A model generated the notes under the pieces. The model was not told the origin of the DNA. It searched no databases and worked only from the letters and a program-made list of their open reading frames with translations. A DNA stretch of 64,000 bases from Candidatus Rokuibacteriota bacterium (GTDB lineage: Bacteria; Methylomirabilota; Methylomirabilia; Rokubacteriales; CSP1-6). The stretch covers positions 30,859 through 94,858 of the forward strand of contig JACQWC010000221.1 in the NCBI GenBank assembly GCA_016209635.1. The letters are read 5' to 3'. The position numbers were made by a program, and so were the translations under genes. Every line of letters begins with the position of its first letter. Positions within the stretch are counted from its first letter, which is position 1. Of the stretch, positions 5,874 through 60,222 are shown one piece after another.

Positions 5874-5879
5874 CGCAGG
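5820..5879 (-). repeat. Copy B of the ~60-bp gene-start repeat (epimerase)
   Basis: See 4781..4840. It encodes M-T-S-A-ASLEGRGATEAVA. Confidence 0.6.
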
Positions 5880-5883
5880 AACC

Positions 5884-7803
5884 TCAGCCACCCGACGCCC
5901 CCAGCACCGACGTGGGCCGTGGGGACCGCCTCGATCCGGGCCGCGCTGTCCGGTCGAGGAACGTCCGGCACCACTGCTCGAAGCAGATCAGCGTCCAGAG
6001 CTGGAGATCGAGCGGTCGGCCGCGCCGGTGCTGCTCGAGGAGGGTCTCGACGCATGCCGGGTCGAAGATCCCCCGCTGCCGGCTCCGCCCCGAGAGCAGG
6101 AGGTCCCGAAGGAAGTCGGCGAGTGGTCCCCTGAACCAGTGCGCGAGCGGGACGGCAAAGCCCTGCTTGGGTCGATCGATGATCTCGTCGGCCAGGACCC
6201 CTCGCATCGCGCGCTTCAGGAGCTGTTTCGTGCGTCCATGGCGAAGCTGCATCTCGGGCGGGATGGTGGCGGCAAACTCGACCAGCTTGTGGTCCAGGAG
6301 CGGGACGCGCGCCTCGAGCGAATGCGCCATGCTCATCCGATCGACCTTCGTCAGGATGTCCAGCGGCAGATACCGCTTCAGATCGAAGTACTGGAGCGCC
6401 GCCAGCCAGCCGCCGGGCGCCCGGGCCAGGCATTCCGCCTCGTCCCGCCACGGGTCGCAGCCCGAGAGCATCGCGCCCGCCTCGGGCGCGAACAGACGCG
6501 CGTGCTCGTGGCGTCGGAAGAGGGTCACCGCATCGAGGTACCGCTGCCAGCCATCGAGCGAGAAGTGGCGCAGGGAGTTCCGGCCCCGCATTCCTTCGGG
6601 CATGAGCCCGCCCGCCGTCGCGAGCGCCCACCGGAGCGGCGCCGGCAGCGCTCCGTACCGCCGCTCGCTCCACTCGACCCGATACTTGTCGTAGCCGGCG
6701 AAGAGCTCGTCGCCCCCGTCGCCGGACAGGACAACGGTCACCTCCTCGGCCGCCAGCTTCGAGACCAGGTACGTCGGGATCGCCGAAGAGTCGCCGAACG
6801 GCTCGTCGAGGTGCCAGACGAGGCTCTCGATCACCTCCAACGCCGCAGGCTCGACCAGCAGCTCCCGGTGCTCGATCCCGAGCCGCTCGGCGACTCGCCG
6901 CGCGTGGGGTCGTTCGTCGTAGGCGCCTTCCCGAAACCCGATCGAGAAGGTCTTCAGCGGGCCCGGAGCGACCCGCGCCATGGTGGCCACGACCGAGCTC
7001 GAGTCGATCCCGCCCGAAAGGAACGCGCCCAGCGGGACGTCGCTGGTGAGATGCAGACGGACGGACTCTTCGAGCAGATCGCGGAGCCGCTCGACGAAGT
7101 ACGACTCGCCATGATGGCGATCCGGCTCGAAGGTCACGTCCCAGTACTGCCGCGGGCGCGGCGTCACGCCCTCACCGACGATGAGGAGGTGGCCGGGCTC
7201 GAGCTTTCGGACACCGGCGATGACACTCTCCGCCGATGGTGTCGTCAAGAACGCGAAGACCCGGCCCAGCGCGTTCCAGTCGAGTCGCCGCTCGACGTCG
7301 GGCGACTGGAGAATCGCCTTGAGCTCGGAGGCGAACAGCAACCGCCCGTTGACCTCGGTGTAGTACAGCGGCTTGATCCCCAGCCGGTCGCGGGCGATGA
7401 GCGCCTGTCGCCGTCGCTTGTCCCACAGCGCGAACGCGAACATGCCGCGCAGGTGGTCGACACAGGCGGCGCCGTACTCCTCGTACAGGTGGACGATCGT
7501 CTCCGTGTCGGTGGCCGTGTAGAACGAATGGCCGCGATCTTTCAGGTCGCGCCGCAATGTCTTGAAGTTGTAGATCTCGCCGTTGAGCACGACCCAGACC
7601 GAGCCGTCCTCGTTCCTGACCGGCTGGCTCCCCGTCTCCAGGTCGATGATGCTCAGGCGGCGCATGGCGAGCCCGACGCCCTCGCTGGTGTAGAGCCCCT
7701 CGGCGTCGGGCCCACGGTGCGTCATGACCTCGCACATCGAGAAGAGCTCTGCGGCGGAGACCGGCCGCCCGTTGAGGCTCACGACACCTGCGATGCCGCA
7801 CAT
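5884..7803 (-). CDS. Asparagine synthase (glutamine-hydrolysing) family amidotransferase, EPS-associated paralog
   Basis: 639 aa. N-terminal MCGIAG Ntn-amidotransferase start; SGGIDSS PP-loop. Confidence 0.92.
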   Translation of the reverse strand: MCGIAGVVSLNGRPVSAAELFSMCEVMTHRGPDAEGLYTSEGVGLAMRRLSIIDLETGSQPVRNEDGSVWVVLNGEIYNFKTLRRDLKDRGHSFYTATDTETIVHLYEEYGAACVDHLRGMFAFALWDKRRRQALIARDRLGIKPLYYTEVNGRLLFASELKAILQSPDVERRLDWNALGRVFAFLTTPSAESVIAGVRKLEPGHLLIVGEGVTPRPRQYWDVTFEPDRHHGESYFVERLRDLLEESVRLHLTSDVPLGAFLSGGIDSSSVVATMARVAPGPLKTFSIGFREGAYDERPHARRVAERLGIEHRELLVEPAALEVIESLVWHLDEPFGDSSAIPTYLVSKLAAEEVTVVLSGDGGDELFAGYDKYRVEWSERRYGALPAPLRWALATAGGLMPEGMRGRNSLRHFSLDGWQRYLDAVTLFRRHEHARLFAPEAGAMLSGCDPWRDEAECLARAPGGWLAALQYFDLKRYLPLDILTKVDRMSMAHSLEARVPLLDHKLVEFAATIPPEMQLRHGRTKQLLKRAMRGVLADEIIDRPKQGFAVPLAHWFRGPLADFLRDLLLSGRSRQRGIFDPACVETLLEQHRRGRPLDLQLWTLICFEQWCRTFLDRTARPGSRRSPRPTSVLGASGG

Positions 7804-7816
7804 CGTCCTCGTCCCC

Positions 7817-9334
7817 CTAGCCCCTGGACCGCGCCGCCACTCGTCCGTCCGCGACCGGCCGACGCCGCCACCCGGTCAGCGCCGTGCGCTCCGTCTCGCC
7901 GAGCAAGCCCAGCCGGAGCACCAGCGCCAGGTAGACGACGCCTGTCGCCACGGTCGCCGCGGTCAGGCCCGACCAGCCGGCGTCGCCCACGGACGACCTC
8001 GCCGCCAGTCCCACCAGCGCCGCGAGCGTCGCGGCGGTCGCGGTGGTACCGAGGCTCCGCCACGGCAGGAGCCCGGCGAGGCCCACTCCCATCAGCCCCC
8101 GCATCCTGGCCAGCGCGAGGCACTTCGCGACCGCGGTCGCGAGCACCGTGACGAGCATTGCGCCCGGCAGCTGGAAGACCGCGATGAGTGGAGCGATCAG
8201 CGCGGCGATGAGCACGAGCCGGACCGCGTTCAGCAGCAGCAAGAACCCTGTTTGCGCGTACACGCGCAGCACCGCATCCGTGGCCAGGACGGCGAGCCCG
8301 ATGACCGTGGTCGCGATCATGAACACCGGAACGCTCGCCCGGTACTGCTCGGTGAAGAGCAGCACAATCAGGTCCGGCGCCCCCACCAGGAGCACGCCCA
8401 CGAGCGGAAAGAAGACCACGGCCAGCTTGCGGGTCGCGTCGTGCCAGATCTCGAGCACCCGGTCGGCGCGCGCCTCCCGCACCGCCTCCGCCATCCGCAC
8501 CATCAGCACGTTGCCGGCCGACATCGCCACGAGGTCGACGAACGGGATCTGCAGGCACCCGACCGCGTAGACGGCGAACGTCGCCGCGTCGAAGCGGTAG
8601 GCGACCGCGTACTGGTGGAAGTTGGCCTGTACGATCTCGAGCAGGACGGCGAGCCCGAACGGGCCCGCATAGGTGAGCTGCCTCGCCAGGAGCGCCCGAT
8701 CCACGCGCAGCGTGGCCCGGAACGCGCACCCGAAGTAGCCGAGCGCCGCGGCGGCCCGGACGAGGGCGAACACGACCGCGCCGGCCACCACCGCGTCGAG
8801 ACGCCCCAGCAGCAGCGCCGGCACCGTCAGGCTGGCGGCTCGCAGCACGTCGGAGGCCCCATAGCACGCCGAGGCCGCGAGGTAGCGGCGTCGGGCGGTC
8901 ATCACGATCTCGAGCCCGGCCGAGCCCAGCATCAGCGCGAGGAACGCCGCGATCGGCCCGAGGTGAAGGGACAGCGTGTCGTTAGAGAGCCAGCCGGCGA
9001 TCGTCACGCCTGCGGTCGCGAGCAGCGCGCCGCACGCCGCCCCCATGACGGCGAGAACCAGGAGCGAGTTGGCGACGTACCTCCCCGTCGCCGCCCCGGC
9101 CGCGGGGACGAAGTAGAAGAGGCTCTCGGCCATGCCGACCTGCGCGATGTAGTAGAGGGTCGAGAACACGAGGAAGAGTTGCTTGTAGGTGCCGAACTCG
9201 GTCTGGTCGAAGACCCGCGCCAGGACGACGGGAGTGAAGAACGTCGCCACGAACGCCAGGGTCCGCCCCGACATCAGGAGGAGCGCCGGTCGGAACGTCG
9301 AGTCCGTTGCGCGCGTGTCACGCATCAGGGGCAT
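7817..9334 (-). CDS. Wzx-like polysaccharide flippase (MOP superfamily)
   Basis: 505 aa, polytopic. N-terminal ...LLLMSGRTLAFVATFFTPVVLARVFDQTEFGTYKQLFL... is typical of oligosaccharide flippases. Alternative ATG at 9325. Confidence 0.85.
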   Translation of the reverse strand: MPLMRDTRATDSTFRPALLLMSGRTLAFVATFFTPVVLARVFDQTEFGTYKQLFLVFSTLYYIAQVGMAESLFYFVPAAGAATGRYVANSLLVLAVMGAACGALLATAGVTIAGWLSNDTLSLHLGPIAAFLALMLGSAGLEIVMTARRRYLAASACYGASDVLRAASLTVPALLLGRLDAVVAGAVVFALVRAAAALGYFGCAFRATLRVDRALLARQLTYAGPFGLAVLLEIVQANFHQYAVAYRFDAATFAVYAVGCLQIPFVDLVAMSAGNVLMVRMAEAVREARADRVLEIWHDATRKLAVVFFPLVGVLLVGAPDLIVLLFTEQYRASVPVFMIATTVIGLAVLATDAVLRVYAQTGFLLLLNAVRLVLIAALIAPLIAVFQLPGAMLVTVLATAVAKCLALARMRGLMGVGLAGLLPWRSLGTTATAATLAALVGLAARSSVGDAGWSGLTAATVATGVVYLALVLRLGLLGETERTALTGWRRRPVADGRVAARSRG

Positions 9335-10412
9335 CCCGTCGGGCGGTCACGGGCGCGCCGTGGCGCTGACCGCAGCCCCGCGCGAGATCGAAGACGCCGT
9401 GGGTGAGACAGCTCGCGACGGCGGAGGAGAAGCGGCCCGCCGCGTCGAGGCAAGAGTTCTCCCAGAGCAGACGGCGTGGGATCGTCAGCAGCGGATGGCG
9501 CGGGTCCCGGTGGCGACAGGTCGTGTAGGCGAACCGATAGCCAGCCGCTGCCACCGCCTCCACGATCTCGGCGTCGAACGCGCCGTCGGGGTAGGCGAAG
9601 TGGTCGATCGGCGTCCCGAGCCGCGCCTGGAGAGCGCTGCGCGAGCCTGCGATCTCCGCCGAGACCCGCGGCTGGGTCTCCCTGGTCAGCACCGGGTGGG
9701 TCCTCGTGTGCGAGCCCACCGTGATGCCGGCGCGCCGCATCTCGGCCAGCATCTCCCAGGCGAGCGGCCGGAGCCCCTCGAGCGCCCCGTCGTCGATCGC
9801 CGTCTGCTCCTCGAGGGCCGCGATCACGCGGGCGATCCCGGCCTGCGACAGCGTGGTGAGCAAGAGGCGCAGCGCGCTGAACGGGTCGCTCGGCGCGCGT
9901 GGCGTCCCGCTGCCCGGCGGTAGGACGCCGAGCCGGGAGAGTACATCGCGCGCGGTCGGCCAGGCGCGGGTGAGCAGGAGGTACAGCCGGTCGTGAGGCA
10001 GCGGGCTCGGGTTGCCAATCCAGTCCGCGACCACGAAGACCGCGGCCGGGATCCCTTTCCGCGCCAGCAGCGGAAACGCGTGGTCGTACACGTCACGATA
10101 GCCGTCGTCGAAGGTGACGGCGGCCAGGGGGGTCGCCAACCCTTCTCCCGATTCGAGCCGCGAGCCCAGCTCGTCGAGGGACACGAACCGGAAGCGCCGC
10201 CCGATCCAATCCAGATGGCGCTCGAGCATCCGGCGGCTCACGAGCATCGGCGGAATCGCCGACCGGACGCGCGCCGGCCGGTCGGCCACGACCCGGTGAT
10301 AGCCGATCACCAACGGCAGCCGGCGCGCCCCGGACACGAGCGCGACCAGCCGCGCTCCGCCGCTCGCTCGCAGGGCGAGAGCGATTCCCGTCTTAAGGTG
10401 CGCCCGTCGCAT
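9318..10412 (-). CDS. Polysaccharide deacetylase (CE4 family)
   Basis: VTFDDGYRDVYDHAFPLL and GSHTRTHPVL motifs. ATG at 10412. Confidence 0.88.
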   Translation of the reverse strand: MRRAHLKTGIALALRASGGARLVALVSGARRLPLVIGYHRVVADRPARVRSAIPPMLVSRRMLERHLDWIGRRFRFVSLDELGSRLESGEGLATPLAAVTFDDGYRDVYDHAFPLLARKGIPAAVFVVADWIGNPSPLPHDRLYLLLTRAWPTARDVLSRLGVLPPGSGTPRAPSDPFSALRLLLTTLSQAGIARVIAALEEQTAIDDGALEGLRPLAWEMLAEMRRAGITVGSHTRTHPVLTRETQPRVSAEIAGSRSALQARLGTPIDHFAYPDGAFDAEIVEAVAAAGYRFAYTTCRHRDPRHPLLTIPRRLLWENSCLDAAGRFSSAVASCLTHGVFDLARGCGQRHGAPVTARRDAPDA

Positions 10413-11589
10413 GATCCACGGCGTAGGGCTCGTTCCGGCGTCCGGCGGCGAAGCCCGGCGAGACCGTCTCCAGAAGGACGCGCCTTGCCACGTGGCGGGC
10501 GGCCCGACTCGCTTCGATCGCCTGACGGTAGAGCCATCCCCGCACGCGAGGTGGATACAGCTCCAGCCGTTGCAGCGCGCGCGTCCGGTGAGCCCAGTGG
10601 AACTTGTACTCCTCGTCGCCGTGCAGGAGATCGTACTCCTTCACCCCTTCCTCCACCGCCGCCTTGATGCTGAGGCCGAGGGCCACGAGGCCACTGCTCT
10701 GCCGGGCGTAGCTCGGATCGAAGCCCGACTGGTAGAAGTAGAATCTGTCCCGGTAGCGGAAGCCGTAGACGGACGCGACCGGTCTGCCGTCGAGGCGGAG
10801 CGTGAACAGCCGGAGCCAGCCGCGCTCGAGGGCGAGGCCGCTGAACTCGTCGTGAAACGCGACGAGGCTCGTGCTGTGAAGCGCGCTGGAGCCTCCCCGG
10901 GGATACCAGCGCATGTGGTGCAGGGTCACCAGCGCTCGCACCGCGGCCCGCCGCTGCGCCTCGGTCTCGACGCGCTCGAGGCGCAATTCTCCCAGACGCG
11001 ACAGCTGCCTGAGTCGCCGACGAAAATTGTATCGGTGCGCCGGGCCGAGGCCGTCCAGATACGATTCCCACGAGCCGCCGGCCAGGTCGATGAACGGACA
11101 CACGCTCGTCCCCGCCGACCGCACGCTCCAGCCACGCCTTTCCAGCTCGGCGGCGAGGCGCCAGGCATTCGGCGCGCCCGGTTCCAGCTGAGCCAAGCCC
11201 ATGACGGCCGTGCCGTCGACCAGGTGGGCGGCCAGCGCCCGGGCCGCCTCCACCGCCAGGCCGCGCCTGGTGATCAGATCGAGGTAGTCCGACCCCACGC
11301 TCCCCGTCCCGAGGAACTCCAGCGAGCGGACCGACAGCAGGTGACTCAAGCGCCGCGGTCTCCAGGCCAGCGGCGCGATGGCGATCAGCTCTCCGCGCGA
11401 GCGCACGACGAGGATCGAGAGCCTCCGGTCCTCCGCGAGGTGCTTCCACCAGGTGAAGAGCCACTCCCAGGTCAGGAACAGGCAATCGGACGTGCACGTC
11501 GAGAGCAGCGCGGTCCACTCGCCCCGCAGCTTCTCGAAGGCCGCGGCGTCCTCGATTCTCTCGACGTGGGTCATCGGATCACTCGTCAT
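10393..11589 (-). CDS. FemAB/CelD-like GNAT-fold acyltransferase
   Basis: MTHVERIEDAAAFEKLRGEWTALL...FLTWEWLFTWWKHL... is typical of the CelD/BioF2-like acetyltransferase domain. Start at ATG 11589 or ATG 11574. The track N-terminus is shadow. Confidence 0.75.
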   Translation of the reverse strand: MTSDPMTHVERIEDAAAFEKLRGEWTALLSTCTSDCLFLTWEWLFTWWKHLAEDRRLSILVVRSRGELIAIAPLAWRPRRLSHLLSVRSLEFLGTGSVGSDYLDLITRRGLAVEAARALAAHLVDGTAVMGLAQLEPGAPNAWRLAAELERRGWSVRSAGTSVCPFIDLAGGSWESYLDGLGPAHRYNFRRRLRQLSRLGELRLERVETEAQRRAAVRALVTLHHMRWYPRGGSSALHSTSLVAFHDEFSGLALERGWLRLFTLRLDGRPVASVYGFRYRDRFYFYQSGFDPSYARQSSGLVALGLSIKAAVEEGVKEYDLLHGDEEYKFHWAHRTRALQRLELYPPRVRGWLYRQAIEASRAARHVARRVLLETVSPGFAAGRRNEPYAVDHATGAP

Positions 11590-11622
11590 GGGCCCGGACG
11601 GATCGACGCGGAACGGGGCGCC

Positions 11623-11660
11623 GCGCTCGCGGGGCAGCCGGACGGCCGACCCGCGAGCGC
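11623..11660 (-). other. GC-rich stem-loop just downstream of CDS 11676..12278
   Basis: An 11-bp perfect stem GCGCTCGCGGG / CCCGCGAGCGC with a 16-nt loop that can pair further (GCCG/CGGC). There is no U-tract, so intrinsic termination is doubtful. Confidence 0.35.
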
Positions 11661-11675
11661 TCGACCAATCACCCG

Positions 11676-12278
11676 TTACTTCGGATTGACCCCGTTGCAC
11701 GGCTTGTGGATCTGGATGTTCCCGCCGTCGATGCCGTCACTGGGGGGTGTGAAGGCACTGGGGGCGCCGCCGCTGTCGGCGTGATAGGAGAGGCCCGGCC
11801 CACTGACGGTGATAATGAAGCGGTCGTGGCCTTTCGGCACGTTGCCCGGCTCGCCGTCGTCGACCACCTCGGCCCTGTAGGCGTAGCCGGCCACGCCGTT
11901 GACCTGAGCGCTTCCGCTGAAGGTCCGGTCGGCGCATTCCGTGTTGTGGACCGTATCGAAGCAGGCGAACGCGTCGTACGTGTCGACGCTCGTCGCCTTC
12001 ACGTGCATCCCCGTGTTGTGGTCGATGTAGTTCAGGTTGCCCATGAGCGGCGGTGGGGGCTCGCCGTTCTTGTAACCGGCCTCGAAGCCGAAGTTGGCCC
12101 TCTGGTTCGGATTGTCCGGGTCCGAATCCGGTGTCGGGGCGAACCACCCACCGCCCGTCACGAAATCGAAGCAGGGGCTCGGCACCGGATGCGCCTCGGA
12201 GTCGTGGCCGGGCATCGACACGGCCACGCCCGTCAGCAGAAACACGAGCCCTGCCATTCGAAGGATCACCCATTTCAT
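11676..12278 (-). CDS. Secreted Cys-containing hypothetical protein (possibly post-COAP-1-like)
   Basis: 200 aa. Signal peptide MKWVILRMAGLVFLLTGVAVS. SD GGAGGAG 6 nt before the ATG. Motifs GGGWF, ANFGFEAGY, GNLNYIDH, FSGSAQVNG, VVDDGEPG, DRFIITV, GGNIQIH. Confidence 0.75.
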   Translation of the reverse strand: MKWVILRMAGLVFLLTGVAVSMPGHDSEAHPVPSPCFDFVTGGGWFAPTPDSDPDNPNQRANFGFEAGYKNGEPPPPLMGNLNYIDHNTGMHVKATSVDTYDAFACFDTVHNTECADRTFSGSAQVNGVAGYAYRAEVVDDGEPGNVPKGHDRFIITVSGPGLSYHADSGGAPSAFTPPSDGIDGGNIQIHKPCNGVNPK

Positions 12279-12290: not shown

Positions 12291-12914
12291 CTACTGAGAG
12301 ATCGAGCTGCTCGCGCTCGACACGACGATTTCCCCGCCCGCCGAGAGGATCAGATGGAGCGCGTTGACGACGATCCCCTGGAGCGTCGTCGTCTGCTCGT
12401 TGATGACGAGCGTCGCCACCCCGGGAAGGCTGATCGTTTGGTTCGGCAGACCCGTCACCTGGACGGGAACGCCGCCGAACGTCAGGCCGTCGATCTGGCT
12501 GCCGCCGCTCGGGCCGACGTCGGTCGCGTCCGCTTGGGCCTGGACGAACGAGGCCGTGATCTCCGCCGCCTGCCCGGGCAGAACGACGACGTTGGCCAGC
12601 GACGTCAAGCTGTTGACCTGGTCACCCGCCGTGCTGGTCAGGGCGCCGCTCGTGGCCGCGACCAGTGTCTCGGCGCTCAGGACACCCGGCACCGCGGTGC
12701 CCTCAAGCGTCGCGCCGGACCAGCCGCCGTCGGCGGGCAGCGCGCCCGTATCGGCGATGTACAGCGGGCCGGCCCCGAGAACGTTCACGTAGGCGCTGTA
12801 GGCCCGACCGCCGAAGCTGGACGCGTGGGCGGGAGCCATCCAGGCCACTCCCGACAGGACGAGGAGGCTCGCGACAAGCGCGAGCCTCACGGGTCGTGCA
12901 CCGATGTTTCTCAT
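12291..12914 (-). CDS. Secreted Gly/Ala/Ser/Thr/Val-rich hypothetical protein (possibly choice-of-anchor P-like), no C-terminal anchor
   Basis: ATG at 12914 with AGGAGG 7 nt upstream; the track start at 12917 is GTG. Signal peptide ...LALVASLLVLSGVAWMAPAHA. No Cys. Ends SSASSSISQ. Confidence 0.75.
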   Translation of the reverse strand: MRNIGARPVRLALVASLLVLSGVAWMAPAHASSFGGRAYSAYVNVLGAGPLYIADTGALPADGGWSGATLEGTAVPGVLSAETLVAATSGALTSTAGDQVNSLTSLANVVVLPGQAAEITASFVQAQADATDVGPSGGSQIDGLTFGGVPVQVTGLPNQTISLPGVATLVINEQTTTLQGIVVNALHLILSAGGEIVVSSASSSISQ

Positions 12915-12932
12915 CACTCTTCCTCCTTGCTA

Positions 12933-13092: not shown

Positions 13093-14202
13093 CTAGATCC
13101 CGATCCACCACTCGCCCTCGAGCCGTGAGAGGAAGGCGTCCCCGCGGTGGATGGCCTCCAGCACCTCCGGATGACGCGAGTGGATCAACATCCACGCCCC
13201 GCCGTCATGGTGGAAGAGGCAGTAGCGATCCGGCGCCGCGCGGAGCGCCGTGGGATCCAGCGGCCCGGACACGGCGACGGCGCCGTGGCGCCACGCGTCG
13301 TGGAAGAGATGCTCGAGCACCTCGCCCATCGAGTCAGATCGGGCCGCGATCTGGACCACCTCGCTCGGGCCGCCCGGATTCAGGTAGTAGAGGTACCAGC
13401 CCGCTGCCTCTCCGCGGCCGTCGCGAACGACCACCGTCCGGAAGGCGCCGTGGGCCGTCTTTCTGGCCAGGAGCTCGAGCAGCCACCGCAACGCGCGCGC
13501 GTCGTACTCGGGGCGCAGCGCCCGGTCGCCCGAGAGCCGCTCCAGGCCCTCCAGGAGGATCTCGGCGGTGAGCTCCCCCCCGGTCAGGCGCGGGGCCGGA
13601 GGACGGAACGCCGACCGCGTCGCCACGGCGTCGGTGACCGACACGAGGGGACGCAGCATCGAGTCCCAGCGCGACGACCACCCCCGCCTTCTGAGAACCG
13701 TGAGGATGTAGCGCGCGGGCCGAAGCGGCCGCGTCCACCGCAAGCTGTACAGCAGCGACGTGGCGCCGCCGAAAGCCTCCCAGATCCTCCGGGAGGTGTC
13801 GTTCCCCTCCGCGAGGGACAAGTCCTGTGATCCCGCGAGGAAGGCCTGGACCAGCCGGATGGCGGCGAGCGACGCCCGCCGGTCGGCTTCGACCATGAAC
13901 GTATGCGTGATCGCCGCCCGGATGGGTCGCCCGCCGAGCGACATCGGCCGGGGCATCACCCCGAGGCAGCCGATGATCCGACCGTCTGCCTCCTCGTACA
14001 CGAGGGACGGCAGCTCGTCGTCCCGCCACGGGTTCCGGCAGAACATCTCGGTCAGGTAGGGCGCGACCTTCCGGGCCGGGCGCCCGACGCCGTCGCCGAA
14101 GATCCGTTCGTGCAGCCCGGCGACCCCGGGAATGTCGTCCTCGGTCAGCGGCCGGACCCTGCCGATCGCCGACCCGCTCCGCGTCAGCCCCTGGGCGGTC
14201 AT
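13093..14202 (-). CDS. GNAT-fold acyltransferase (Eis-like two-domain architecture)
   Basis: ATG at 14202 with GGAG 5 nt upstream; GTG at 14232 is an alternative. ...VRPLTEDDIPGVAGLHERIF... and IGCLGVMPRPMSLGGRPIRAAITHTFMVEADRR resemble a GNAT core. The call is family-level only. Confidence 0.6.
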   Translation of the reverse strand: MTAQGLTRSGSAIGRVRPLTEDDIPGVAGLHERIFGDGVGRPARKVAPYLTEMFCRNPWRDDELPSLVYEEADGRIIGCLGVMPRPMSLGGRPIRAAITHTFMVEADRRASLAAIRLVQAFLAGSQDLSLAEGNDTSRRIWEAFGGATSLLYSLRWTRPLRPARYILTVLRRRGWSSRWDSMLRPLVSVTDAVATRSAFRPPAPRLTGGELTAEILLEGLERLSGDRALRPEYDARALRWLLELLARKTAHGAFRTVVVRDGRGEAAGWYLYYLNPGGPSEVVQIAARSDSMGEVLEHLFHDAWRHGAVAVSGPLDPTALRAAPDRYCLFHHDGGAWMLIHSRHPEVLEAIHRGDAFLSRLEGEWWIGI

Positions 14203-14238
14203 GGCGACTCCGCGACCGGATTCAGGTGCCACCCCGTC

Positions 14239-14505
14239 TCAGCACCCGGCACCGGCGTCGCTCCCGTTCCCGCTCAGCATGAACTCGGCGATCCGCGCGA
14301 TCGATCGGAACCGCTCGATCTCGAGGTCCTCGACCGTCGTCCTGATTCCGAACTCCTCCTCAAGCCGGACCAGGAGATCCACGAACATGAGCGAGTCCAT
14401 CACGCCGCTCGTGAAGAGGTCCGTCTCCTCCGAAGGCACCGTCAGATGCAGGCGCTTCTCGAAGAGGTCCGCGATCCGACGCCGTACGCTCGCTCGGTCC
14501 GCCAT
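14239..14505 (-). CDS. DltC-like acyl/aminoacyl carrier protein
   Basis: ATG at 14505, 1 nt after the upstream stop. Phosphopantetheine-site context LFTSGVMDSLMFVDLLVRLEEEFGI resembles D-alanyl carrier proteins. Confidence 0.85.
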   Translation of the reverse strand: MADRASVRRRIADLFEKRLHLTVPSEETDLFTSGVMDSLMFVDLLVRLEEEFGIRTTVEDLEIERFRSIARIAEFMLSGNGSDAGAGC

Positions 14506-14506
14506 C

Positions 14507-15025
14507 TCACAGCTCCTTGTGCTCCGACGCCAGCAGGTCGAAGAGCAGGCGGTCATGGTGTCGCCCGTCGATGTCGTGGCACTGGCGCTGCCGGCCGATC
14601 AGGCGGAAGTTGTTCCGCTCGACCATCCGGAGCGACACGGCGTTGTCCGCCACCACCCAGGCGAAGATCGAGCGGAGCCCGAGTTCTCTGAAGCCCAGGG
14701 CCAGGATTTTCGACAGCGCTCGGTTGCCGTAGCCGCGCCCCGCGTATCGCTTGTCGCCAAGCACACACCACGGCGTCGCCGTCTTGAACCTCCGGTCGAC
14801 GTTGCTCAGGCCCACGACGCCGATCGGCACCTCGCCCGAATCGTCGGTGAAGGCCCGGATGACGTGGATGTCCCGCTGGGCCATGATCTTCAGGGACACC
14901 GCGCTCAGCATCTGTTTCCCGCTTCCGAAATCCAGCCACTGGTAGTTCTCTTTCAGGGCCATCCATTCGGCGATTTGCTCGAGGAGCTTCGGGTCATCGA
15001 GTGGCTTCAGCTCCATCTCCCTCAC
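14507..15025 (-). CDS. GNAT family N-acetyltransferase (RimJ/RimL-like)
   Basis: 172 aa; ...WCVLGDKRYAGRGYGNRALSKILALGFRELGLRSIFAWVVADNAVSLRMVERNNFRLIG. Overlaps the 3' end of the adenylation gene. Confidence 0.85.
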   Translation of the reverse strand: MREMELKPLDDPKLLEQIAEWMALKENYQWLDFGSGKQMLSAVSLKIMAQRDIHVIRAFTDDSGEVPIGVVGLSNVDRRFKTATPWCVLGDKRYAGRGYGNRALSKILALGFRELGLRSIFAWVVADNAVSLRMVERNNFRLIGRQRQCHDIDGRHHDRLLFDLLASEHKEL

Positions 15026-16604
15026 ATGCCTCCTTCAGTCGCCGTCGGTCGATCTTTCCGTTCGCGTTGCGGGGAAGGCTTCCCAGGACCATCCAGCGTG
15101 ACGGCAGCATGTACGCTGGCAACGTCCGCCCGAGCTCCCGCCGGAGCGTCACTGGCGTGACCTCGCGCCCGGGTTCGCCCACGTAGGCAGCGCAGATCAG
15201 CATCCCCTCGAAGCCCCCCGACTGGATGGCCACCACCGCGCCCTCCCGCACCCCCTCGATCGCGCTGAGCGCCGTCTCGACCTCGCCCAGCTCGATCCGG
15301 TAGCCTCGGCTCTTGATCTGCGAGTCGGTCCGGCCGAGGAAGTACAGGAGACCGTCGTCGCCGACCATCGCTCGGTCTCCGGTCCGGTAGATCCGCTCCA
15401 TCGGCTCCCCGCCCCGGGGGTCGGGCAGGAACGCCGCACGCGTCAGCTCCGGATCACGCCAGTAGCCCGGGCTCAGCCCGACGCCCCCGATATAGAGGTC
15501 GCCAGGCTCGCCGAGCGCTGTCGGACCCAGGTGCTCGTCGAGCAGGAGCAGTTCTTCCCCCTCACAGGCGATCCCGATCGGGATGGCCGCCCTGTCGTCG
15601 TCGGGACACCGCGGGACCGTGTAGTAGCTGCTGGCGATCGTCGTCTCGGTGGGCCCGTACAGATTCGTAAAGGTGGCGTGGGGCAGTCGCGCCATCCAGT
15701 AGCGAAGGGCCGGCGTGGGAAAGACCTCCCCGCACCAGAGCACGCGCCTCAGCGTCGGGAAGTCGTTGGCTCTGACGACGTCGAACTTCGCCATGTAGTT
15801 GAGCACCGACGGAACGGAGAACCACTGGGTCAGCTCGGAGGTCCGGACGAACTCCGCCAGCTTGTTCGGCAGGATGCTCAGGTCCGGCGGCACGAGATGG
15901 AGCTGGGCGCCCGCCGCGAACGTCCCGAAGATGTCGTAGACGGAAAGGTCGAAGTGCAGTGGCGGGTGGGCGGACATCCGATCCGCCGACGTCGTCCCAA
16001 AGTACCGTCGCGCCCACTCGACGAAGTGCGCCACGCTCGAGTGCGTGATGACGACCCCTTTCGGCGCGCCCGTGGACCCGGAGGTGAAGAGGATGTGGGC
16101 GGCGTCGTGCCGCCGGTTGGCGCAATCCGGCGGCGCCGTCGAGTAGGCGCTGAGATCCGCCAGCGAGAAATCGGAGTGGAAGCGCGCCCCCTTGCCCCGC
16201 TCTCGACCCAGCCATCCCACCGAGATCGCCGCCCGGAATCGATCGGCTTCGAACAGCGCGTCGAGCAGGGGTTCGACGCCGTCGCCGGCCAGGATCCAGC
16301 GGTTCTCGCAGGACTCGAGGATCTTCGCCACGCGCGGGGCCGGGCTCGACGGGTCGACGGGCACGTAGATGCAGTCCGCCTTGTAGATGCCGACGATCCC
16401 GACGATCGCCTCGATCGATTTGGACGTGAGGAGGCAGACTCGGTCGCCCCTCCGGCACCCGGCCGCCTGGAGGAGCCTGGCCAACTGGTTCGCGGCGCTC
16501 TCGAGCCGGCCGTAGCTCAAGCGCTCACCATTCAGGACCACGGCGACGGCCTCGGGCCGTCGCTCCGCCTGCCGCGCGACGTACTCCTGCAGCAGCTCTA
16601 TCAC
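14994..16604 (-). CDS. Adenylate-forming enzyme (amino acid adenylation domain, DltA-like)
   Basis: 536 aa. Motifs FTSGSTGAPKG, LYGPTETT, YRTGD, GRTDSQIKSRGYRIELGEVE, NGKIDRRRL. Confidence 0.92.
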   Translation of the reverse strand: MIELLQEYVARQAERRPEAVAVVLNGERLSYGRLESAANQLARLLQAAGCRRGDRVCLLTSKSIEAIVGIVGIYKADCIYVPVDPSSPAPRVAKILESCENRWILAGDGVEPLLDALFEADRFRAAISVGWLGRERGKGARFHSDFSLADLSAYSTAPPDCANRRHDAAHILFTSGSTGAPKGVVITHSSVAHFVEWARRYFGTTSADRMSAHPPLHFDLSVYDIFGTFAAGAQLHLVPPDLSILPNKLAEFVRTSELTQWFSVPSVLNYMAKFDVVRANDFPTLRRVLWCGEVFPTPALRYWMARLPHATFTNLYGPTETTIASSYYTVPRCPDDDRAAIPIGIACEGEELLLLDEHLGPTALGEPGDLYIGGVGLSPGYWRDPELTRAAFLPDPRGGEPMERIYRTGDRAMVGDDGLLYFLGRTDSQIKSRGYRIELGEVETALSAIEGVREGAVVAIQSGGFEGMLICAAYVGEPGREVTPVTLRRELGRTLPAYMLPSRWMVLGSLPRNANGKIDRRRLKEACEGDGAEATR

Positions 16605-17614
16605 CGGGTCACCTCCACGGCCTTTTGGAAGCCGAGACTGGTGTGGCGCAGATCATCCGGAGCGCCCGGCACGTCGAGAATGAAGCGCGTGTACCCGGCT
16701 TCCATGTATCGCGCCAGCGCCTCGCCGACCCGGTCGTAGCTGCCCACCAGGTAGGGGCAGAACGTCTGATAGTGCTGGAAGGGGCCCAGCCAGTACCCGT
16801 CGGGCAGCGCCTCCGCGCTCAGCTCCGCAAGCTCCTTGTGCCAGGACGAGTCCGAGGTCTTCGTGGCCAGCTGGTGGGTCAGCTGACCCCGCCGGTCCTC
16901 GGGAAAGCGCGCGTGGGCGACCTGCCACGCCTCCTCGTCGGTGGGCCGAGCGATGATCCCGACGCGTATGCCGTACGGGATGCCGGCGTCCGGCGGGACC
17001 GTCTCGGACGCGGACGGCTTCGGATACTTCACCGCGGTCGCCCCCAGCATCCGGGCGGCCGCCAGCCCCGCCTCCGAAGAGGCCGACACGAAGATCCCCG
17101 GGAACAGCTCCGGCGCCAGCGGCGGGACGAGCTTCAGCTTCTCGACCCGGTAGAACACGCCCTCATAGCTGACCGCGGAAGCCGTTCCCAGAAGCGCCTT
17201 GACGACGGTCGTGTACTCGAGCAGGCGGTCGTAGCGCGCGTCGTGGGGCGCCGTGTCGTTGAGCGCGGCCAGATCGTTGCGGAAGCCGCCCGCCACCATG
17301 TTGAGGTACACGCGCCTCGCGTGCAGGTCAGCGAGCGACGTCACCATCTTCGCCACCCAGTAGGGGTGCGTGTACACGGGCTGGACCGCGACGAGGGGAC
17401 ACAGGCTGGCGGTGTTCTGGATGATGATCTGGGCGAGCAACCACGGCTCCAGCAGGCCGTTGTCGGAGTAGACGAGGATCCCCCGGCACCCGGCCTCCTC
17501 GCTCCACCGGGCGACGTCGATCACGTGTCGCAGGTAGCGTCCCCGAGCGACGGCGCTCGACGGCGGGCAGGTGGAGAACACCTCGATCGACACGTCGGGA
17601 ATCTTGTCCTTCAC
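16601..17614 (-). CDS. LLM-class (luciferase-like, SsuD-like) flavin-dependent oxidoreductase
   Basis: C-terminal 337 aa of track ORF 16601..18826. GTG at 17614 overlaps the upstream TGA, with GAGGAG 6 nt upstream. VKDKIPDVSIEVFSTCPP...GILVYSDNGLLEPWLLAQ...LCPLVAVQP...VYLNMVAGGF...HDARYDRLLEY parallels SsuD. Confidence 0.85.
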   Translation of the reverse strand: MKDKIPDVSIEVFSTCPPSSAVARGRYLRHVIDVARWSEEAGCRGILVYSDNGLLEPWLLAQIIIQNTASLCPLVAVQPVYTHPYWVAKMVTSLADLHARRVYLNMVAGGFRNDLAALNDTAPHDARYDRLLEYTTVVKALLGTASAVSYEGVFYRVEKLKLVPPLAPELFPGIFVSASSEAGLAAARMLGATAVKYPKPSASETVPPDAGIPYGIRVGIIARPTDEEAWQVAHARFPEDRRGQLTHQLATKTSDSSWHKELAELSAEALPDGYWLGPFQHYQTFCPYLVGSYDRVGEALARYMEAGYTRFILDVPGAPDDLRHTSLGFQKAVEVTR

Positions 17615-18801
17615 GGAATTCTCCTCGGGGAGCCGGCCCAGCTCGCCCCTTCTTGCACGTTCAGGTAGAGCTGCTCGGTCTCGGTCACCATCCGTTCCAG
17701 AGAAAAGTGCTCGGCGATCCGCCGCTGCCCGGCTCGGCCGAAGCTCGCAGCCAGCTCGGCGTCCTCGAGCACTCGGCAGATGGCGCGGGCCAGCGCCGCG
17801 GGGTCTCGTGGCGGGACCAGCAGGCCGGTCCCTCCGTCCACCACCACCTCCGGGTTGCCCCCCACTCGTGTGGCGACGACGGGCACCCCGGCCGCCATCG
17901 ACTCGAGCAGGACGTTCGACAAGCCTTCGCTCAGGGACGGGAGCACGGACACCGTGGCCTCGGACAGGACCTCGGGAATGTCGAGCCGGAACCCGGCGAA
18001 CGTGATGCGCCCGTCGAGGCCGAGACGCCGCGCGTGGCCCTCCAGCGCCTCCCGGTACAGGAGGTCCGGCACGACACCGCCGTCCTTCACGAGGTGGCCG
18101 TCGCCCACGATCAGGAAGCGCGCGTGCCGGACGCGCTGGGCGACGAGGGCCGCGGCGTCCACGAAGTCCTCCAGCCCCTTCAGCGGCTTCAGTCGAGACA
18201 ACACGGTGACGACCGGGACCCCCGCACGTAGCCCCAGCTCCTGGCGGACGCGGCCATCGCAGCGGCTCACCCCGAACGCGGAGAGGTCGACGCCGTTCCG
18301 GATGACGGCGATCTTTCGCGGATCGTAGCCGTCGGTGACCAGCCACTGCCTCACCGCCTCGGCGTTCGCCACGATCCGGTCGGCCAGGCGACACACGAGC
18401 CGCTGCACCCGCCGCTGCCACGACGAGAGGTAGACGCCGGTGTCCCTGATCGATACGACCGCCGGCACGCCGATCAGCTTGGCGACAGGAACGGCGAAGA
18501 CGGTGGGATAGAAGTTGTACGTGTGCACCACCTGGATCCGATCCCGGCGAAGGTCGGAGGCGAATCTCACCTGCGCTCGGAGCGTGCGGGGGCCGTACAG
18601 GCGATCGATGCCGTACTCGGCGAGCGGCACGCCGAGCGCCTCGATCTCCCCGAGGAGATGCCCCCACCGCCTGAGACACGCGATGTGCAGCGCGAACCGG
18701 GACGGGGCCAGAGCGCGCCCGAGGGCGACCGCCTGCCGTTCCGTCCCGCCCATGCCGAACACGGTGAGGAACTTCAGCAACCTGAGGCGTTCTCGTGGCA
18801 T
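17611..18801 (-). CDS. Glycosyltransferase family 4
   Basis: C-terminal 396 aa of track ORF 17611..20163. ATG at 18801. MPRERLRLLKFLTVFGMGGTERQ...; tail SLSEGLSNVLLESMAAGVPVVATRVGGNPEVVVDGGTGLLV. Confidence 0.88.
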   Translation of the reverse strand: MPRERLRLLKFLTVFGMGGTERQAVALGRALAPSRFALHIACLRRWGHLLGEIEALGVPLAEYGIDRLYGPRTLRAQVRFASDLRRDRIQVVHTYNFYPTVFAVPVAKLIGVPAVVSIRDTGVYLSSWQRRVQRLVCRLADRIVANAEAVRQWLVTDGYDPRKIAVIRNGVDLSAFGVSRCDGRVRQELGLRAGVPVVTVLSRLKPLKGLEDFVDAAALVAQRVRHARFLIVGDGHLVKDGGVVPDLLYREALEGHARRLGLDGRITFAGFRLDIPEVLSEATVSVLPSLSEGLSNVLLESMAAGVPVVATRVGGNPEVVVDGGTGLLVPPRDPAALARAICRVLEDAELAASFGRAGQRRIAEHFSLERMVTETEQLYLNVQEGASWAGSPRRIP

Positions 18802-20199: not shown

Positions 20200-21507
20200 C
20201 TAGAGCGTGACGACACGACCCGCCGGGGCCTGGATCTCGTACGTTGCGCCGCGCGTGTCGACGACGAGCGCGGCGACCGCGACGATCCGGTGGTAATCGA
20301 ACTCCGCGTGATCGGTGAGGATCAGGACGCAGTCCGCGCCGGCGAGGCGCTCATCGGTGGGCTCGACCGCCTTGAAGGCGTGACCGCCCAGAGTGATCTC
20401 GGGAACATACGGGTCCGCGTACGCGACCCCGGCCCCGCACTCGATGAGCCTGCCGAGGACCTCGAGCGCGGGCGACTCTCGCGTGTCTCCCACTCCCCGC
20501 TTGTAGGCGACCCCCAGGGCCAGGATCGTCGCGCCGTTCAGGCAGCGCCGCCGGCGGTTCAGGGCCTCCCCCACCAGCTCGACGACGTGTCCCGGCATGG
20601 ACCGGTTGATCTCGTCCGCCAGCCGGATGCACCGGGCCTCGTAGCCGTCCAGGCGCATCTTCCAGGCGAGGTAGGCAGGATCGACGCCGATGCAGTGCCC
20701 GCCGATCCCCGGCCCCGGGTAGAACGGCAGGAACCCGAACGGCTTGGTGGCGGCGGCGTCGATCACCTCGCGCGTGCTCACGCCGAGGCGGCGGCACATG
20801 AGCGCAAACTCGTTGGCAAGCGCGATGTTGACGTTCCTGAACACGTTCTCGTAGAGCTTGACCAGCTCCGCCACCTTGGCGTTCGAAACCACGATGACCT
20901 GCGCGATGATCTGGCGATAGAGGAAGGCCGCGAGAGCAGCGCACCGCGGCGTCACCCCTCCGACCACCTTCGGGATGTCCGTCACCGAGTACGTTGGGTT
21001 GGCCGGGTCGATCCGCTCGGGCGAGAAGGCCAGGAAGACGTCCACGCCCGGCCTGGCCCCCCGACCCTCGAACAGCGGCACGAGCAGCTCCTGGGTCGTC
21101 CCAGGGTACGTCGTCGATTCCAGGATCACGAGATGGCCGGGCCGGAACCGGGCAGCCACTTCCTCGGCGGCGGCGAGGACGAACGAGATGTCCGGATCCT
21201 TCGTCTTCCTCAAGGGCGTGGGCACGCAGATGACCGCGACGTCGCTCTGGTCGAGGACCGAGAAGTCGGCGCTGGCCTCGTACAGCCCCTCGCGCAGCAC
21301 CGTTGCCAGCGTCTCGTCCTCCACGTCGGGACTGTGTGAGCGGCCCGCGTTGAGAGCGCCCAGCCGGTCCGGATCGGTATCGAGCCCGGTCACGACGAAG
21401 CCGCCCCGGGCGAACGCGATGGCCAGTGGGAGACCAACGTACCCTTGCCCGATCACGCAGAGCCGGGCGGCGCGATCACGGATGCGACGCATCAGATCGG
21501 TGGTCAT
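20200..21507 (-). CDS. Nucleotide-sugar 6-dehydrogenase (WbpO/TviB/WbpA-like, UDP-N-acetylhexosamine type)
   Basis: CVIGQGYVGLPLAIAFA Rossmann motif, PGPGIGGHCI catalytic Cys. ATG at 21507 gives the usual N-terminal length; ATG at 21540 is an alternative. Confidence 0.9.
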   Translation of the reverse strand: MTTDLMRRIRDRAARLCVIGQGYVGLPLAIAFARGGFVVTGLDTDPDRLGALNAGRSHSPDVEDETLATVLREGLYEASADFSVLDQSDVAVICVPTPLRKTKDPDISFVLAAAEEVAARFRPGHLVILESTTYPGTTQELLVPLFEGRGARPGVDVFLAFSPERIDPANPTYSVTDIPKVVGGVTPRCAALAAFLYRQIIAQVIVVSNAKVAELVKLYENVFRNVNIALANEFALMCRRLGVSTREVIDAAATKPFGFLPFYPGPGIGGHCIGVDPAYLAWKMRLDGYEARCIRLADEINRSMPGHVVELVGEALNRRRRCLNGATILALGVAYKRGVGDTRESPALEVLGRLIECGAGVAYADPYVPEITLGGHAFKAVEPTDERLAGADCVLILTDHAEFDYHRIVAVAALVVDTRGATYEIQAPAGRVVTL

Positions 21508-21568
21508 CACCTCGAGACCCTCTCGGGACGCGCGAACCATGGGCGGCGATGCCGAGCCTCGCGGTCCA

Positions 21569-22504
21569 CTATGAGGTCTTCACGCCCCGCATTCGGATCG
21601 GGCCGTCGAACACCTCGACGTCGAGAAACCCGTTGGCCCGAAACCACCCGAACACCTCGGGGTAGAGGAACTTCCACTGATACCGCGGGGTGTACCAGTC
21701 GAACGTGTCGAGCCAGCGCCAGCGCCAGTTCGGGTGCATCGAGATCGCGAAGAACAGCCGCAGCGCTTCGCCGAGCCCGCGCACGCGGTAGACGTAGTAG
21801 AGGGGGATCGCCACGGCTGACAGCGCGAGCATCAACCGTCGGGGAAGCCGGGTCGTCAGCCGGCGCACGACGTCCGCGACCCGGTGGGCGGATCCGTACC
21901 GAGCGTACACGTACACGGCGAACCCGCCCCCTTTCTTCACCGCCGCCGCGACGCGGTCGAACGCCGCGCGCGGGTCGGGGGTGTGATGCAGGACGCCGAT
22001 CGAGTACGCCAGATCGAACGTCCTCTCGCGAAACGGCATCGCGAAGATGTCCGCCTGGACGACGTGCACCTTGTCGAGCCGCCCGATGTTCGCGTACGCG
22101 GCGTCGGCCGCCGTCGTGAGATCGATCCCGACGACCTCGCCCCCCTTCCTCGCGACGACCTCGGCGAACCGACCCGCGCCAACGCCCGCGTCGAGCACGA
22201 GGCGGCCCACATAATCCGCGTCCCGCCAACCGGTTGTCGCTTCCAGCGTCGTCTCCGACTCCCGCGTCCCGCTCCACGAGTCGAGCTGCACCTTGCGGAA
22301 CCAGTTCCACTGGTCGCCGAAACTCGATGCGTACGTGCGCTCGGCGACGAATCTCGGAACGCCGCGGATGACCGGGTAGGCACGCCGACACTGACGGCAG
22401 GCGAGGATCCCCTCGCTCACCTCCGCGTCTCGGCGGTCCGCGCGCAGGTCGAGCTCACCGTGACAAGCCGGACAGACGAGGAACCGCAGGGCGCTGGGCT
22501 TCAT
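21569..22504 (-). CDS. Class I SAM-dependent methyltransferase with N-terminal Trm112-like zinc ribbon
   Basis: Internal ATG at 22504, 4 nt after the upstream stop. MKPSALRFLVCPACHGELDL...ILACRQCRRAYPVIRGVPRF, then LDAGVGAGRF. The track N-terminus is shadow. Confidence 0.85.
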   Translation of the reverse strand: MKPSALRFLVCPACHGELDLRADRRDAEVSEGILACRQCRRAYPVIRGVPRFVAERTYASSFGDQWNWFRKVQLDSWSGTRESETTLEATTGWRDADYVGRLVLDAGVGAGRFAEVVARKGGEVVGIDLTTAADAAYANIGRLDKVHVVQADIFAMPFRERTFDLAYSIGVLHHTPDPRAAFDRVAAAVKKGGGFAVYVYARYGSAHRVADVVRRLTTRLPRRLMLALSAVAIPLYYVYRVRGLGEALRLFFAISMHPNWRWRWLDTFDWYTPRYQWKFLYPEVFGWFRANGFLDVEVFDGPIRMRGVKTS

Positions 22505-60080: not shown

Positions 60081-60158
60081 GGCGCGCCTCCTCCGGAATC
60101 TCAGGGCGAGTCTACCACGGGACGCGCGTGCCGAGCGGCGCGCGACCGATCTCTCGGG

Positions 60159-60187
60159 TTGACCCGTCGGAGGGCCGCGGGTAGCAT
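60159..60187 (+). promoter_or_regulatory. Sigma70-like promoter candidate TTGACC-N17-TAGCAT
   Basis: Read directly. The -10 ends 35 nt before the ATG at 60223, with a GGAGGG SD in between. Confidence 0.45.
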
Positions 60188-60222
60188 GGGGGCGCGGCAC
60201 ATTCCTGACGGAGGGTTGGCAC

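Follow-up and report, generated by a model that had tools for sequence, protein, structure and literature searches.

What is an amino-acid-loading pair doing among the genes for a secreted polysaccharide? The question is raised by a 64,000-nucleotide stretch of DNA from a Candidatus Rokuibacteriota bacterium (contig JACQWC010000221.1, positions 30,859 to 94,858 of the forward strand), hereafter the window, in which five consecutive genes encode a luciferase-like monooxygenase (LLM), an adenylation (A) enzyme, a small GNAT, a carrier protein and a large GNAT within an exopolysaccharide (EPS) operon. How a bacterial EPS is charged, hydrated and recognized is governed by its non-carbohydrate substituents and, to our knowledge, the enzymes for most substituents of the amino-acid type are unassigned. 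We propose, with a probability of about 0.5, that this cassette is a tRNA-independent, carrier-protein-dependent module decorating the EPS made by the surrounding Wzx/Wzy operon.

The window has a G+C content of about 70%, and its genes were called by codon-position G+C and then tested against profile libraries. In order of transcription, the cassette (13093-17614) contains:

16601 to 17614, minus strand: LLM-class flavin oxidoreductase, 337 residues, GTG start (PF00296, 9.4e-30)
14994 to 16604, minus strand: stand-alone A enzyme of the nonribosomal peptide synthetase type, 536 residues (PF00501, 2.9e-77; TIGR01733, 384.1 bits, above the cutoff of 317.4)
14507 to 15025, minus strand: small GNAT, RimJ/RimL/PseH-like, 169-172 residues (PF13302, 1.3e-10; PF00583, 5e-9)
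14239 to 14505, minus strand: peptidyl or acyl carrier protein (PCP/ACP), DltC-like, 88 residues, with the phosphopantetheine site GVMDS*L (PF00550, 2e-11)
13093 to 14202 (369 residues, ATG start) or to 14232 (379 residues, GTG start), minus strand: large tandem GNAT (PF13527, 25.6 bits)

The junctions between these genes were read from the sequence. The GT4 glycosyltransferase and LLM genes overlap by GTGA, as do the LLM and A genes; the small GNAT gene starts 23-32 nt within the A gene, the PCP gene starts 1 nt past the small-GNAT stop, and a gap of 6-36 nt separates the PCP gene from that of the large GNAT. As the GTGA and 1-nt coupling extends to the upstream GT4 gene, the cassette forms one translational unit with glycan genes. 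An earlier annotation made from the letters alone (the sequence-only reading) had described five consecutive, translationally coupled genes, with the LLM gene upstream in the direction of transcription and the whole set inside an EPS operon; the profile matches, junctions and coordinates bear out this description. All cassette proteins are predicted to be cytoplasmic.

The A enzyme passes a generic adenylation-domain model and falls under both DltA models (TIGR01734, 288 bits for a cutoff of 560; NF003417, 307 bits for a cutoff of 476), and the best NCBIfam match of the carrier protein, DltC, is likewise under its cutoff (NF003464, 35.5 bits for 68; TIGR01688, 24.3 for 52). Neither MBOAT (DltB), DltD nor LpxL-type genes were present among the scanned open reading frames (ORFs), which comprised the genes of the operon between 4 and 30301 plus ten others of the window. 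The absence of MBOAT and DltD equivalents asserted by the sequence-only reading thus stands for the scanned operon, and a Dlt/Alm-like loading pair devoid of DltB, DltD and AlmG is supported, with the GNAT-fold enzymes as the sole transferase candidates in the block. The LLM appears SsuD-like at the superfamily level only, its best NCBIfam match, SsuD (TIGR03565), reaching 92 bits against a cutoff of 518 (3e-16 for SsuD in the PDB), and is probably the oxygenase half of a two-component monooxygenase dependent on reduced flavin mononucleotide (FMNH2). The small GNAT, with weak best NCBIfam matches to PseH (32 bits against a cutoff of 93), RimJ and RimL, is probably an accessory enzyme supplying an N-acetyl cap.

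The ten specificity positions of the A enzyme, anchored on conserved motifs and GrsA numbering, were checked by alignments with PltF (6o6e), AlmE (4oxi) and DltA (3dhv, 3e7w), and compare as follows:

DLYFLCLIAK: window enzyme
DLFFLCLIAK: family majority, 28 of 65 members
DLHLFCLIAK: AlmE (glycine), 7 of 10 residues in common with the window and 8 of 10 with the family variant DLHFLCLIAK
DLMTLCTVAK: DltA (D-Ala), 6 of 10 in common with the window
DLLYLALVCK: PltF (L-Pro), 5 of 10 in common with the window

Other codes in the family are DLHFLCLIAK, the His239 variant of Acidobacteria gp2, and DVFFLALISK. Asp235 (the D of FDLSV) and Lys517 (the K of NGKIDR), which in GrsA numbering bind the alpha-amino and carboxylate groups, are kept in the window and in most family members, and the substrate is therefore predicted to be an alpha-amino acid. 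The bulky lining formed by Phe, Phe, Leu, Leu and Ile suggests a small one, glycine or (D-)alanine being the most likely candidates, and the nearly invariant code indicates that the substrate is probably the same across phyla. The sequence-only reading had left the cargo as acyl or aminoacyl: with Asp235 and Lys517 kept and a pocket nearest to those of AlmE and DltA, an aminoacyl group is likely and a fatty-acyl group is disfavored. The best single-domain PDB matches of the pocket fragment were PltF (89.5 bits), AlmE (4oxi, 71 bits) and DltA (64-66 bits). Cys301, Leu236, Leu299, Ala331 and Lys517 are common to the window enzyme and DltA; Cys301 is the residue that sets D-Ala selectivity in DltA.

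Two other substrates were considered for this pocket. Cysteine or a mycothiol-like compound, envisaged from a code near DLYNLSLIWK and the SsuD-like LLM, was dropped, the closest characterized pockets being those of AlmE and DltA and the LLM resembling SsuD at the superfamily level only. Conversion of proline to a pyrrole or dehydroproline was demoted to a caveat, given that only 5 of 10 pocket residues match those of PltF and that most of the others are bulkier, as would be expected of a smaller pocket.

The PF13527 score of the large GNAT is just above the cutoff and covers residues 25-133, in the N-terminal half only, and neither an NCBIfam match nor a PDB sequence match (E<=1) was obtained. 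An AlphaFold model built from 26 sequences was of high confidence, with a predicted local distance difference test (pLDDT) score of 85.8 and a predicted template-modeling (pTM) score of 0.85. Searched with Foldseek, it retrieved N-myristoyltransferases (NMTs) first, with the Eis-like protein 3n7z alongside (TM 0.5-0.58, E about 1e-14, about 350-390 columns). The model thus presents the protein as a tandem GNAT, with two GNAT domains in one chain in the NMT/Eis architecture. The label "Eis-like" given by the sequence-only reading holds for this architecture and does not extend to membership in the Eis sequence family. We propose that the large GNAT is a carrier-protein-dependent transferase.

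This protein belongs to a family of at least 1135 homologues (E<=1e-5), mostly without a name or labeled as hypothetical or GNAT-family proteins, with relatives in 308 species-representative genomes. Of these 308, 80 listed genome loci were examined; the window proteins were mapped on 83 loci and every ORF was clustered. The 80, all from metagenome-assembled genomes (MAGs), belong to Acidobacteriota, Rokubacteria, Nitrospirota, Burkholderiales and other Gammaproteobacteria, Gemmatimonadota, Binatia and Eisenbacteria. Co-occurrence was counted in the 51 loci that offered 5.5 kb or more of upstream sequence. Orthologous LLM and A genes lie directly upstream of the large GNAT gene in 26 of these 51, in Acidobacteriota, Rokubacteria, Nitrospirota, Burkholderiales and Gemmatimonadota, the LLM orthologues being 55-66% identical and encoded directly upstream of the A gene. 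The conserved core is thus a portable unit of four genes, LLM-A-PCP-large GNAT. The five-gene block of the sequence-only reading does recur, with two corrections: the conserved unit has four genes, the small GNAT being accessory, and in six loci a formyltransferase is found instead.

The closest loci reproduce the window. In L001-L003, the order Wzy, GT4, LLM, A, small GNAT, PCP, large GNAT, FemAB-like, CE4, flippase and AsnB-like is the same, L002 having an extra PF01613 flavin reductase gene between those of the PCP and the large GNAT. More broadly, the synteny Wzy-GT4-LLM-A-(GNAT)-PCP-(flavin reductase)-large GNAT-FemAB-like-CE4-flippase-AsnB-like extends to several phyla, with identities of 45-80%. 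In 24 of the 26 loci the quartet has one or more polysaccharide-type genes within 10 kb, and in 17 of them it has three or more; the recurrent neighbors, identified with Pfam, are GT4, GT2, CE4, Acetyltransf_6, flippase, heparinase II/III, DegT aminotransferase and carbamoyltransferase genes. The quartets of L084, L085 and L086 stand alone, as four-gene operons beside regulators and unrelated genes, and the unit is therefore portable and found usually, yet not always, in glycan loci.

Among the accessory genes, that of the small GNAT occurs in 19 of the 51 loci and, in Burkholderiales, lies close by on the opposite strand, together with the flavin reductase gene. In six loci (L015, L042, L059, L063, L065 and L066), a formyltransferase (PF00551 and PF02911) is encoded between A/PCP and the large GNAT, and the small GNAT is missing from all six. 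An acetyltransferase and a formyltransferase sharing one slot suggest that a free amino group gets capped. The presence of a PF01613 flavin reductase within the block in 16 loci favors the LLM as the oxygenase of an FMNH2-dependent monooxygenase with two components over an F420 enzyme.

Remoter homologues of the large GNAT, about 43% identical, are found beside other acid-activating sets. At about 4-10 kb in L054, L058, L062, L068 and L070, from Acidobacteriaceae MAGs, such homologues adjoin LuxE (PF04443), LuxC (PF05893), a DUF3050 protein, a methyltransferase, a FabA-like dehydratase and an AMP-ligase whose code is CFSALAMARK. This LuxE/LuxC/FabA set is a different, lipid-like donor module for the large-GNAT family. 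In L007, L019, L064, L031, L073 and L076, the large GNAT is paired with an A enzyme whose code reads DYNATTM-RK or DYYPTTM-RK. This enzyme is accompanied in the first three loci by an AsnB-like protein (PF00733) as well as a class I/II aminotransferase (PF00155), and in the last three by an NAD-synthase-like protein (PF02540). These varied donor neighbors fit a transferase serving interchangeable donor modules.

From these data, a four-step pathway can be proposed, the order of which we infer. First, the A enzyme would activate a small alpha-amino acid, most likely glycine or (D-)alanine, and attach it as a thioester to the phosphopantetheine arm of the 88-residue carrier. Secondly, the LLM would oxygenate the tethered residue with FMNH2 supplied by a flavin reductase, which in other genomes is encoded in the block; this step is proposed because of the strict pairing of the LLM and A genes and the co-occurrence of the reductase, and would parallel the action of BtrO on the ACP-bound butirosin side chain. 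Thirdly, the small GNAT would N-acetylate the free alpha-amino group, as suggested by its non-orthologous replacement elsewhere by a formyltransferase, which would N-formylate it. Finally, the cytoplasmic tandem GNAT would move the acyl group from the carrier to a sugar nucleophile, most likely an amine on a nucleoside diphosphate sugar or on the undecaprenyl-linked repeat unit. This amine could be supplied by the CE4 deacetylase in the window and by DegT aminotransferases in related loci.

Several points weigh against this pathway. The substrate call rests on a ten-residue code without an exact match, and the proline ligase PltF is the best stand-alone PDB relative of the A enzyme, over its full length as well as for the pocket fragment. 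If the LLM were to hydroxylate the alpha carbon, the alpha-aminoacyl thioester would lose the amine needed for the capping step. The window's operon encodes neither a flavin reductase nor a phosphopantetheinyl transferase. The small GNAT could act on a sugar instead, since its best weak match, PseH, is a sugar N-acetyltransferase, and the FemAB-like protein offers an alternative transferase. The PDB search detected no sequence similarity of the large GNAT to SbzI, a GNAT with a carrier-bound donor, or to any solved protein. Every carrier of the cassette among the 80 listed genome loci is an uncultured MAG. Finally, at least three bare quartets, in Nitrospirota (L084), Terriglobales (L085) and Rokubacteria (L086), have no polysaccharide gene within 10 kb; the sequence-only reading had regarded regular occurrence away from such genes as contrary to its proposal, and this situation is encountered in a minority, 24 of 26 quartets having polysaccharide neighbors.

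The bare quartets also lead to another explanation, in which the product is not a glycan decoration but a small molecule, free or of lipid type, for instance a lipoamino acid or an N-acyl amino acid. Here, the carrier-bound glycine or alanine would be the acceptor, N-acylated by the NMT-like tandem GNAT with a fatty acyl-CoA or acyl-ACP, to give a surfactant or signal made together with the EPS. The stand-alone loci L084-L086, devoid of glycan genes within 10 kb, agree with this scheme, whereas 24 of 26 quartet loci lie amid glycan genes and the window cassette is translationally coupled to GT4. Structurally, the large GNAT matches N-myristoyltransferases best, enzymes that acylate the amine of glycine, but a TM of about 0.55 reflects the shared tandem-GNAT architecture only and Eis-like proteins match equally well. 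The remote homologues adjoin LuxE/LuxC/FabA lipid-type genes, and the reference list of PMC11631085 cites Craig et al. 2011 on N-acyl amino acid synthases and exosortase; the large GNAT itself, however, has no match among the Pfam or NCBIfam models for N-acyl amino acid synthases, and the block contains no release enzyme (thioesterase). We consider this explanation unlikely.

Alternatively, the FemAB-like (Acetyltransf_6) protein could empty the carrier onto the amine freed by CE4, both GNATs being ordinary acetyl-CoA-dependent N- or O-acetyltransferases of the sugar. The sequence-only reading had placed the CE4 (9321-10412) and FemAB-like (10396-11700) genes downstream, as they are, and had treated them as partners of the cassette. 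Both genes follow directly downstream, and the closest loci keep them in synteny, but the large GNAT is the constant partner of LLM-A-PCP, even in quartets with no FemAB-like or CE4 gene nearby, and FemAB-like plus CE4 pairs are also known from XrtA loci with different sets of ligases. The pair is part of the XrtA-type backbone, with no strict linkage to the quartet. Aminoacyl transfer is proven for FemX-type enzymes, although they use aminoacyl-tRNA. A role of the small GNAT as a sugar acetyltransferase would agree with its best match, the sugar N-acetyltransferase PseH. On balance, emptying of the carrier by the FemAB-like protein seems improbable. A Dlt-type charge modification, in which carrier-loaded D-alanine would be esterified to hydroxyls of an acidic polymer while the LLM and GNATs serve unrelated sugar-synthesis steps, draws on DltA and DltC as the best-named NCBIfam matches after the generic A-domain model and on pocket residues common with DltA (Cys301, Leu236, Leu299, Ala331 and Lys517), but is very unlikely given scores far under the DltA and DltC cutoffs, the lack of DltB (MBOAT) and DltD among the scanned operon ORFs, the predicted cytoplasmic location of the cassette proteins when Dlt esterification takes place outside the membrane, and the strict LLM-A pairing across phyla, which speaks for a shared intermediate on which the LLM acts.

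The operon around the cassette is a single long minus-strand unit of the Wzx/Wzy, XrtA-like EPS type, which runs from about 28.3 kb to 1 bp of the window. Its genes, all on the minus strand, are transcribed in this order:

start of the operon: UpxY/RfaH-like antiterminator, Wza exporter, chain-length determinant, BY-kinase
next: YvcK-like protein, priming phosphoglycosyl transferase, Trm112-methyltransferase fusion
next: UDP-ManNAc/GlcNAc-type dehydrogenase, Wzy_C protein, GT4, then the five cassette genes
after the cassette: choice-of-anchor P protein, post-COAP-1 protein, Acetyltransf_6/FemAB-like protein, CE4 deacetylase
next: flippase, AsnB-like amidotransferase, TviC-like epimerase, further GNAT
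end of the operon: beta-propeller with CE2_N-like modules, GT4, heparinase II/III-like protein

The genes that flank the cassette are:

17614 to 18798, minus strand: GT4 glycosyltransferase (PF13692/PF00534; best NCBIfam match TIGR03088, an XrtA-system glycosyltransferase, 183 bits for a cutoff of 409)
12294 to 12917, minus strand: choice-of-anchor P protein (NF040603, 1.4e-36)
11679 to 12278, minus strand: post-COAP-1 protein (NF041523, 8.4e-27)
10396 to 11700, minus strand: Acetyltransf_6/FemAB-like protein (PF13480, 4.8e-36), syntenic in L001-L020
9321 to 10412, minus strand: CE4 polysaccharide deacetylase (PF01522, 2.1e-26; weak PgaB/IcaB-like matches), a possible source of the acceptor amine

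The best NCBIfam matches of the backbone are XrtA/PEP-CTERM-system families, of which solely the chain-length determinant passes its cutoff (TIGR03007, 285.8 bits, above 278.85). The amidotransferase TIGR03108 (677 bits for 817), the priming transferase TIGR03013 (326 for 393), TIGR03018, TIGR03027, the glycosyltransferase TIGR03088 and the ligase-like TIGR03097 are also best matches, each under its cutoff. No exosortase or PEP-CTERM protein was found in the 64-kb window by a regular expression for the C-terminal PEP motif and Pfam scans of the called genes.

The choice-of-anchor P and post-COAP-1 proteins, both with signal peptides, are encoded between the large GNAT and FemAB-like genes, and the pair is inserted at the identical place in L001, L030 and L069; in the window, neither protein carries a PEP-CTERM tail. 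A YvcK/CofD-related gene (23730-24791, minus strand; TIGR01826, 302 bits for a cutoff of 196) separates the BY-kinase gene from that of the priming transferase, and tblastn revealed a homologue at the same place in L002, L004, L005, L012-L014 and L036; it looks like a conserved member of this type of EPS operon. The further GNAT (4136-4831, minus strand; PF00583, 4.4e-7), between the beta-propeller and TviC-like epimerase genes, brings the GNAT-fold proteins of the operon to four, FemAB-like protein included. A WecC/TviB-like dehydrogenase (20203-21579), a TviC-like UDP-GlcNAcA 4-epimerase (4848-5900) and an AsnB-like amidotransferase (5887-7800), all on the minus strand, co-occur, which suggests a polymer with 2-acetamido uronic acid residues of the GalNAcA type, possibly amidated. 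Outside the operon, a PAC2-family protein (59193-60455, minus strand) and a cytochrome P450 (39288-40736, plus strand) have no visible link to the cassette.

Extended beyond the window, the proposal becomes more tentative. It is possible that a widespread, phylum-crossing, tRNA-independent route adds an oxygenated, optionally N-acetylated or N-formylated, glycine- or alanine-derived group to EPS, and that the tandem GNAT founds a family of carrier-dependent glycan aminoacyl transferases with interchangeable donor modules (A/PCP, LuxE/LuxC, A/NAD-synthase-like). If true, this would be a third way to put an amino-acid-derived group on a glycan, besides Fem-type enzymes using aminoacyl-tRNA and ATP-grasp ligases; it would also give a role to the large-GNAT family, with its at least 1135 mostly nameless proteins, and provide a second, structurally different example of a GNAT with a carrier-protein donor. 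The cassette occurs in soil and groundwater bacteria, among them several dominant uncultured soil phyla (Acidobacteriota, Rokubacteria, Nitrospirota, Gemmatimonadota and Burkholderiales). As its parts are small and soluble and the key steps would be visible as mass shifts on the 88-residue carrier, the hypothesis is directly testable in vitro.

Full-text searches combining PEP-CTERM/exosortase with LLM, carrier protein and ligase returned no paper on the cassette, and nowhere did we find a description of a Wzx/Wzy EPS operon that unites an A domain with an LLM and a tandem GNAT, with acetyl or formyl capping as an option. The individual steps do have published precedent in AlmEFG, BtrO/BtrH and SbzI, and the statement of the sequence-only reading that no such route had been biochemically described was too strong. 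The window operon has its best matches in the chain-length determinant, kinase, exporter, priming transferase, ligase-like, glycosyltransferase and amidotransferase families of EPS loci of the XrtA/PEP-CTERM type and, like these loci, contains genes for an acid-activating enzyme and a carrier protein of unassigned role. It differs from them by its mostly sub-cutoff scores, by the lack of exosortase and PEP-CTERM protein in the window, and by its A enzyme, an amino-acid adenylation domain that scores 259 bits with the ligase model TIGR03098 against a cutoff of 592. The LLM and GNATs take the place of the decarboxylase and hydrolase that are the partners in XrtA loci.

In DltABCD, the A enzyme and carrier protein are of the same families and 6 of 10 pocket residues, including Cys301, are the same; the window cassette differs by the absence of DltB and DltD in the scanned ORFs, sub-equivalog scores, the added LLM and GNATs, and a host that is diderm, as indicated by the Wza exporter. 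In AlmEFG of Vibrio cholerae, a DltA/DltC-like pair loads glycine, which is transferred to lipid A without DltB or DltD (PMC4278540). Both systems have a stand-alone DltA-like A enzyme, a small DltC-like carrier and a transfer proposed to take place at the cytoplasmic face, and AlmE (4oxi) is the second-best single-domain match to the window pocket region. In contrast to AlmG, a membrane acyltransferase of the LpxL family, the candidate transferase here is a soluble tandem GNAT, and no lipid A acyltransferase domain is encoded in the operon; the LLM and N-capping enzyme are additional, and the target is presumably the EPS repeat unit instead of lipid A.

In the butirosin pathway, reportedly detailed by Li et al. 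2005 and Llewellyn et al. 2007, the carrier-tethered chain has a temporary N-acyl group. In this BtrI/J/K/O/V/H/G system, an ACP-bound aminoacyl chain is hydroxylated by BtrO, an LLM-superfamily monooxygenase working with the flavin reductase BtrV, and moved to an aminoglycoside amine, BtrH being a papain-like transferase (PMC2922099, PMC13707489). The cassette would resemble it in the amino-acid-derived chain on a free carrier, the LLM with a flavin reductase, the N-acyl cap and the amine acceptor; BtrO and the LLM are likened by superfamily, and the PF01613 reductase is in the block in the 16 related loci, though not in the window. Unlike the cassette, which loads with an A domain, butirosin synthesis uses an ATP-grasp ligase and a pyridoxal phosphate (PLP) decarboxylase, and ATP-grasp, PLP decarboxylase and papain-like domains are all absent from the cassette block. 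The transferase fold is papain-like in BtrH and GNAT here, and the acceptor is an antibiotic there and presumably a polysaccharide here.

A parallel to the last step is found in the altemicidin pathway, where SbzL, SbzG and SbzI are an A enzyme, a free carrier and a GNAT with a carrier-bound acyl donor in place of CoA (PMC11685415). SbzI differs from the large GNAT as a single-domain protein of an alkaloid pathway, with 2-sulfamoylacetyl as donor, and was retrieved by neither cassette GNAT in the PDB sequence searches. SbzI is nevertheless an existing example of the reaction that we propose for the last step of the EPS cassette, in which a carrier protein supplies a GNAT with its donor.

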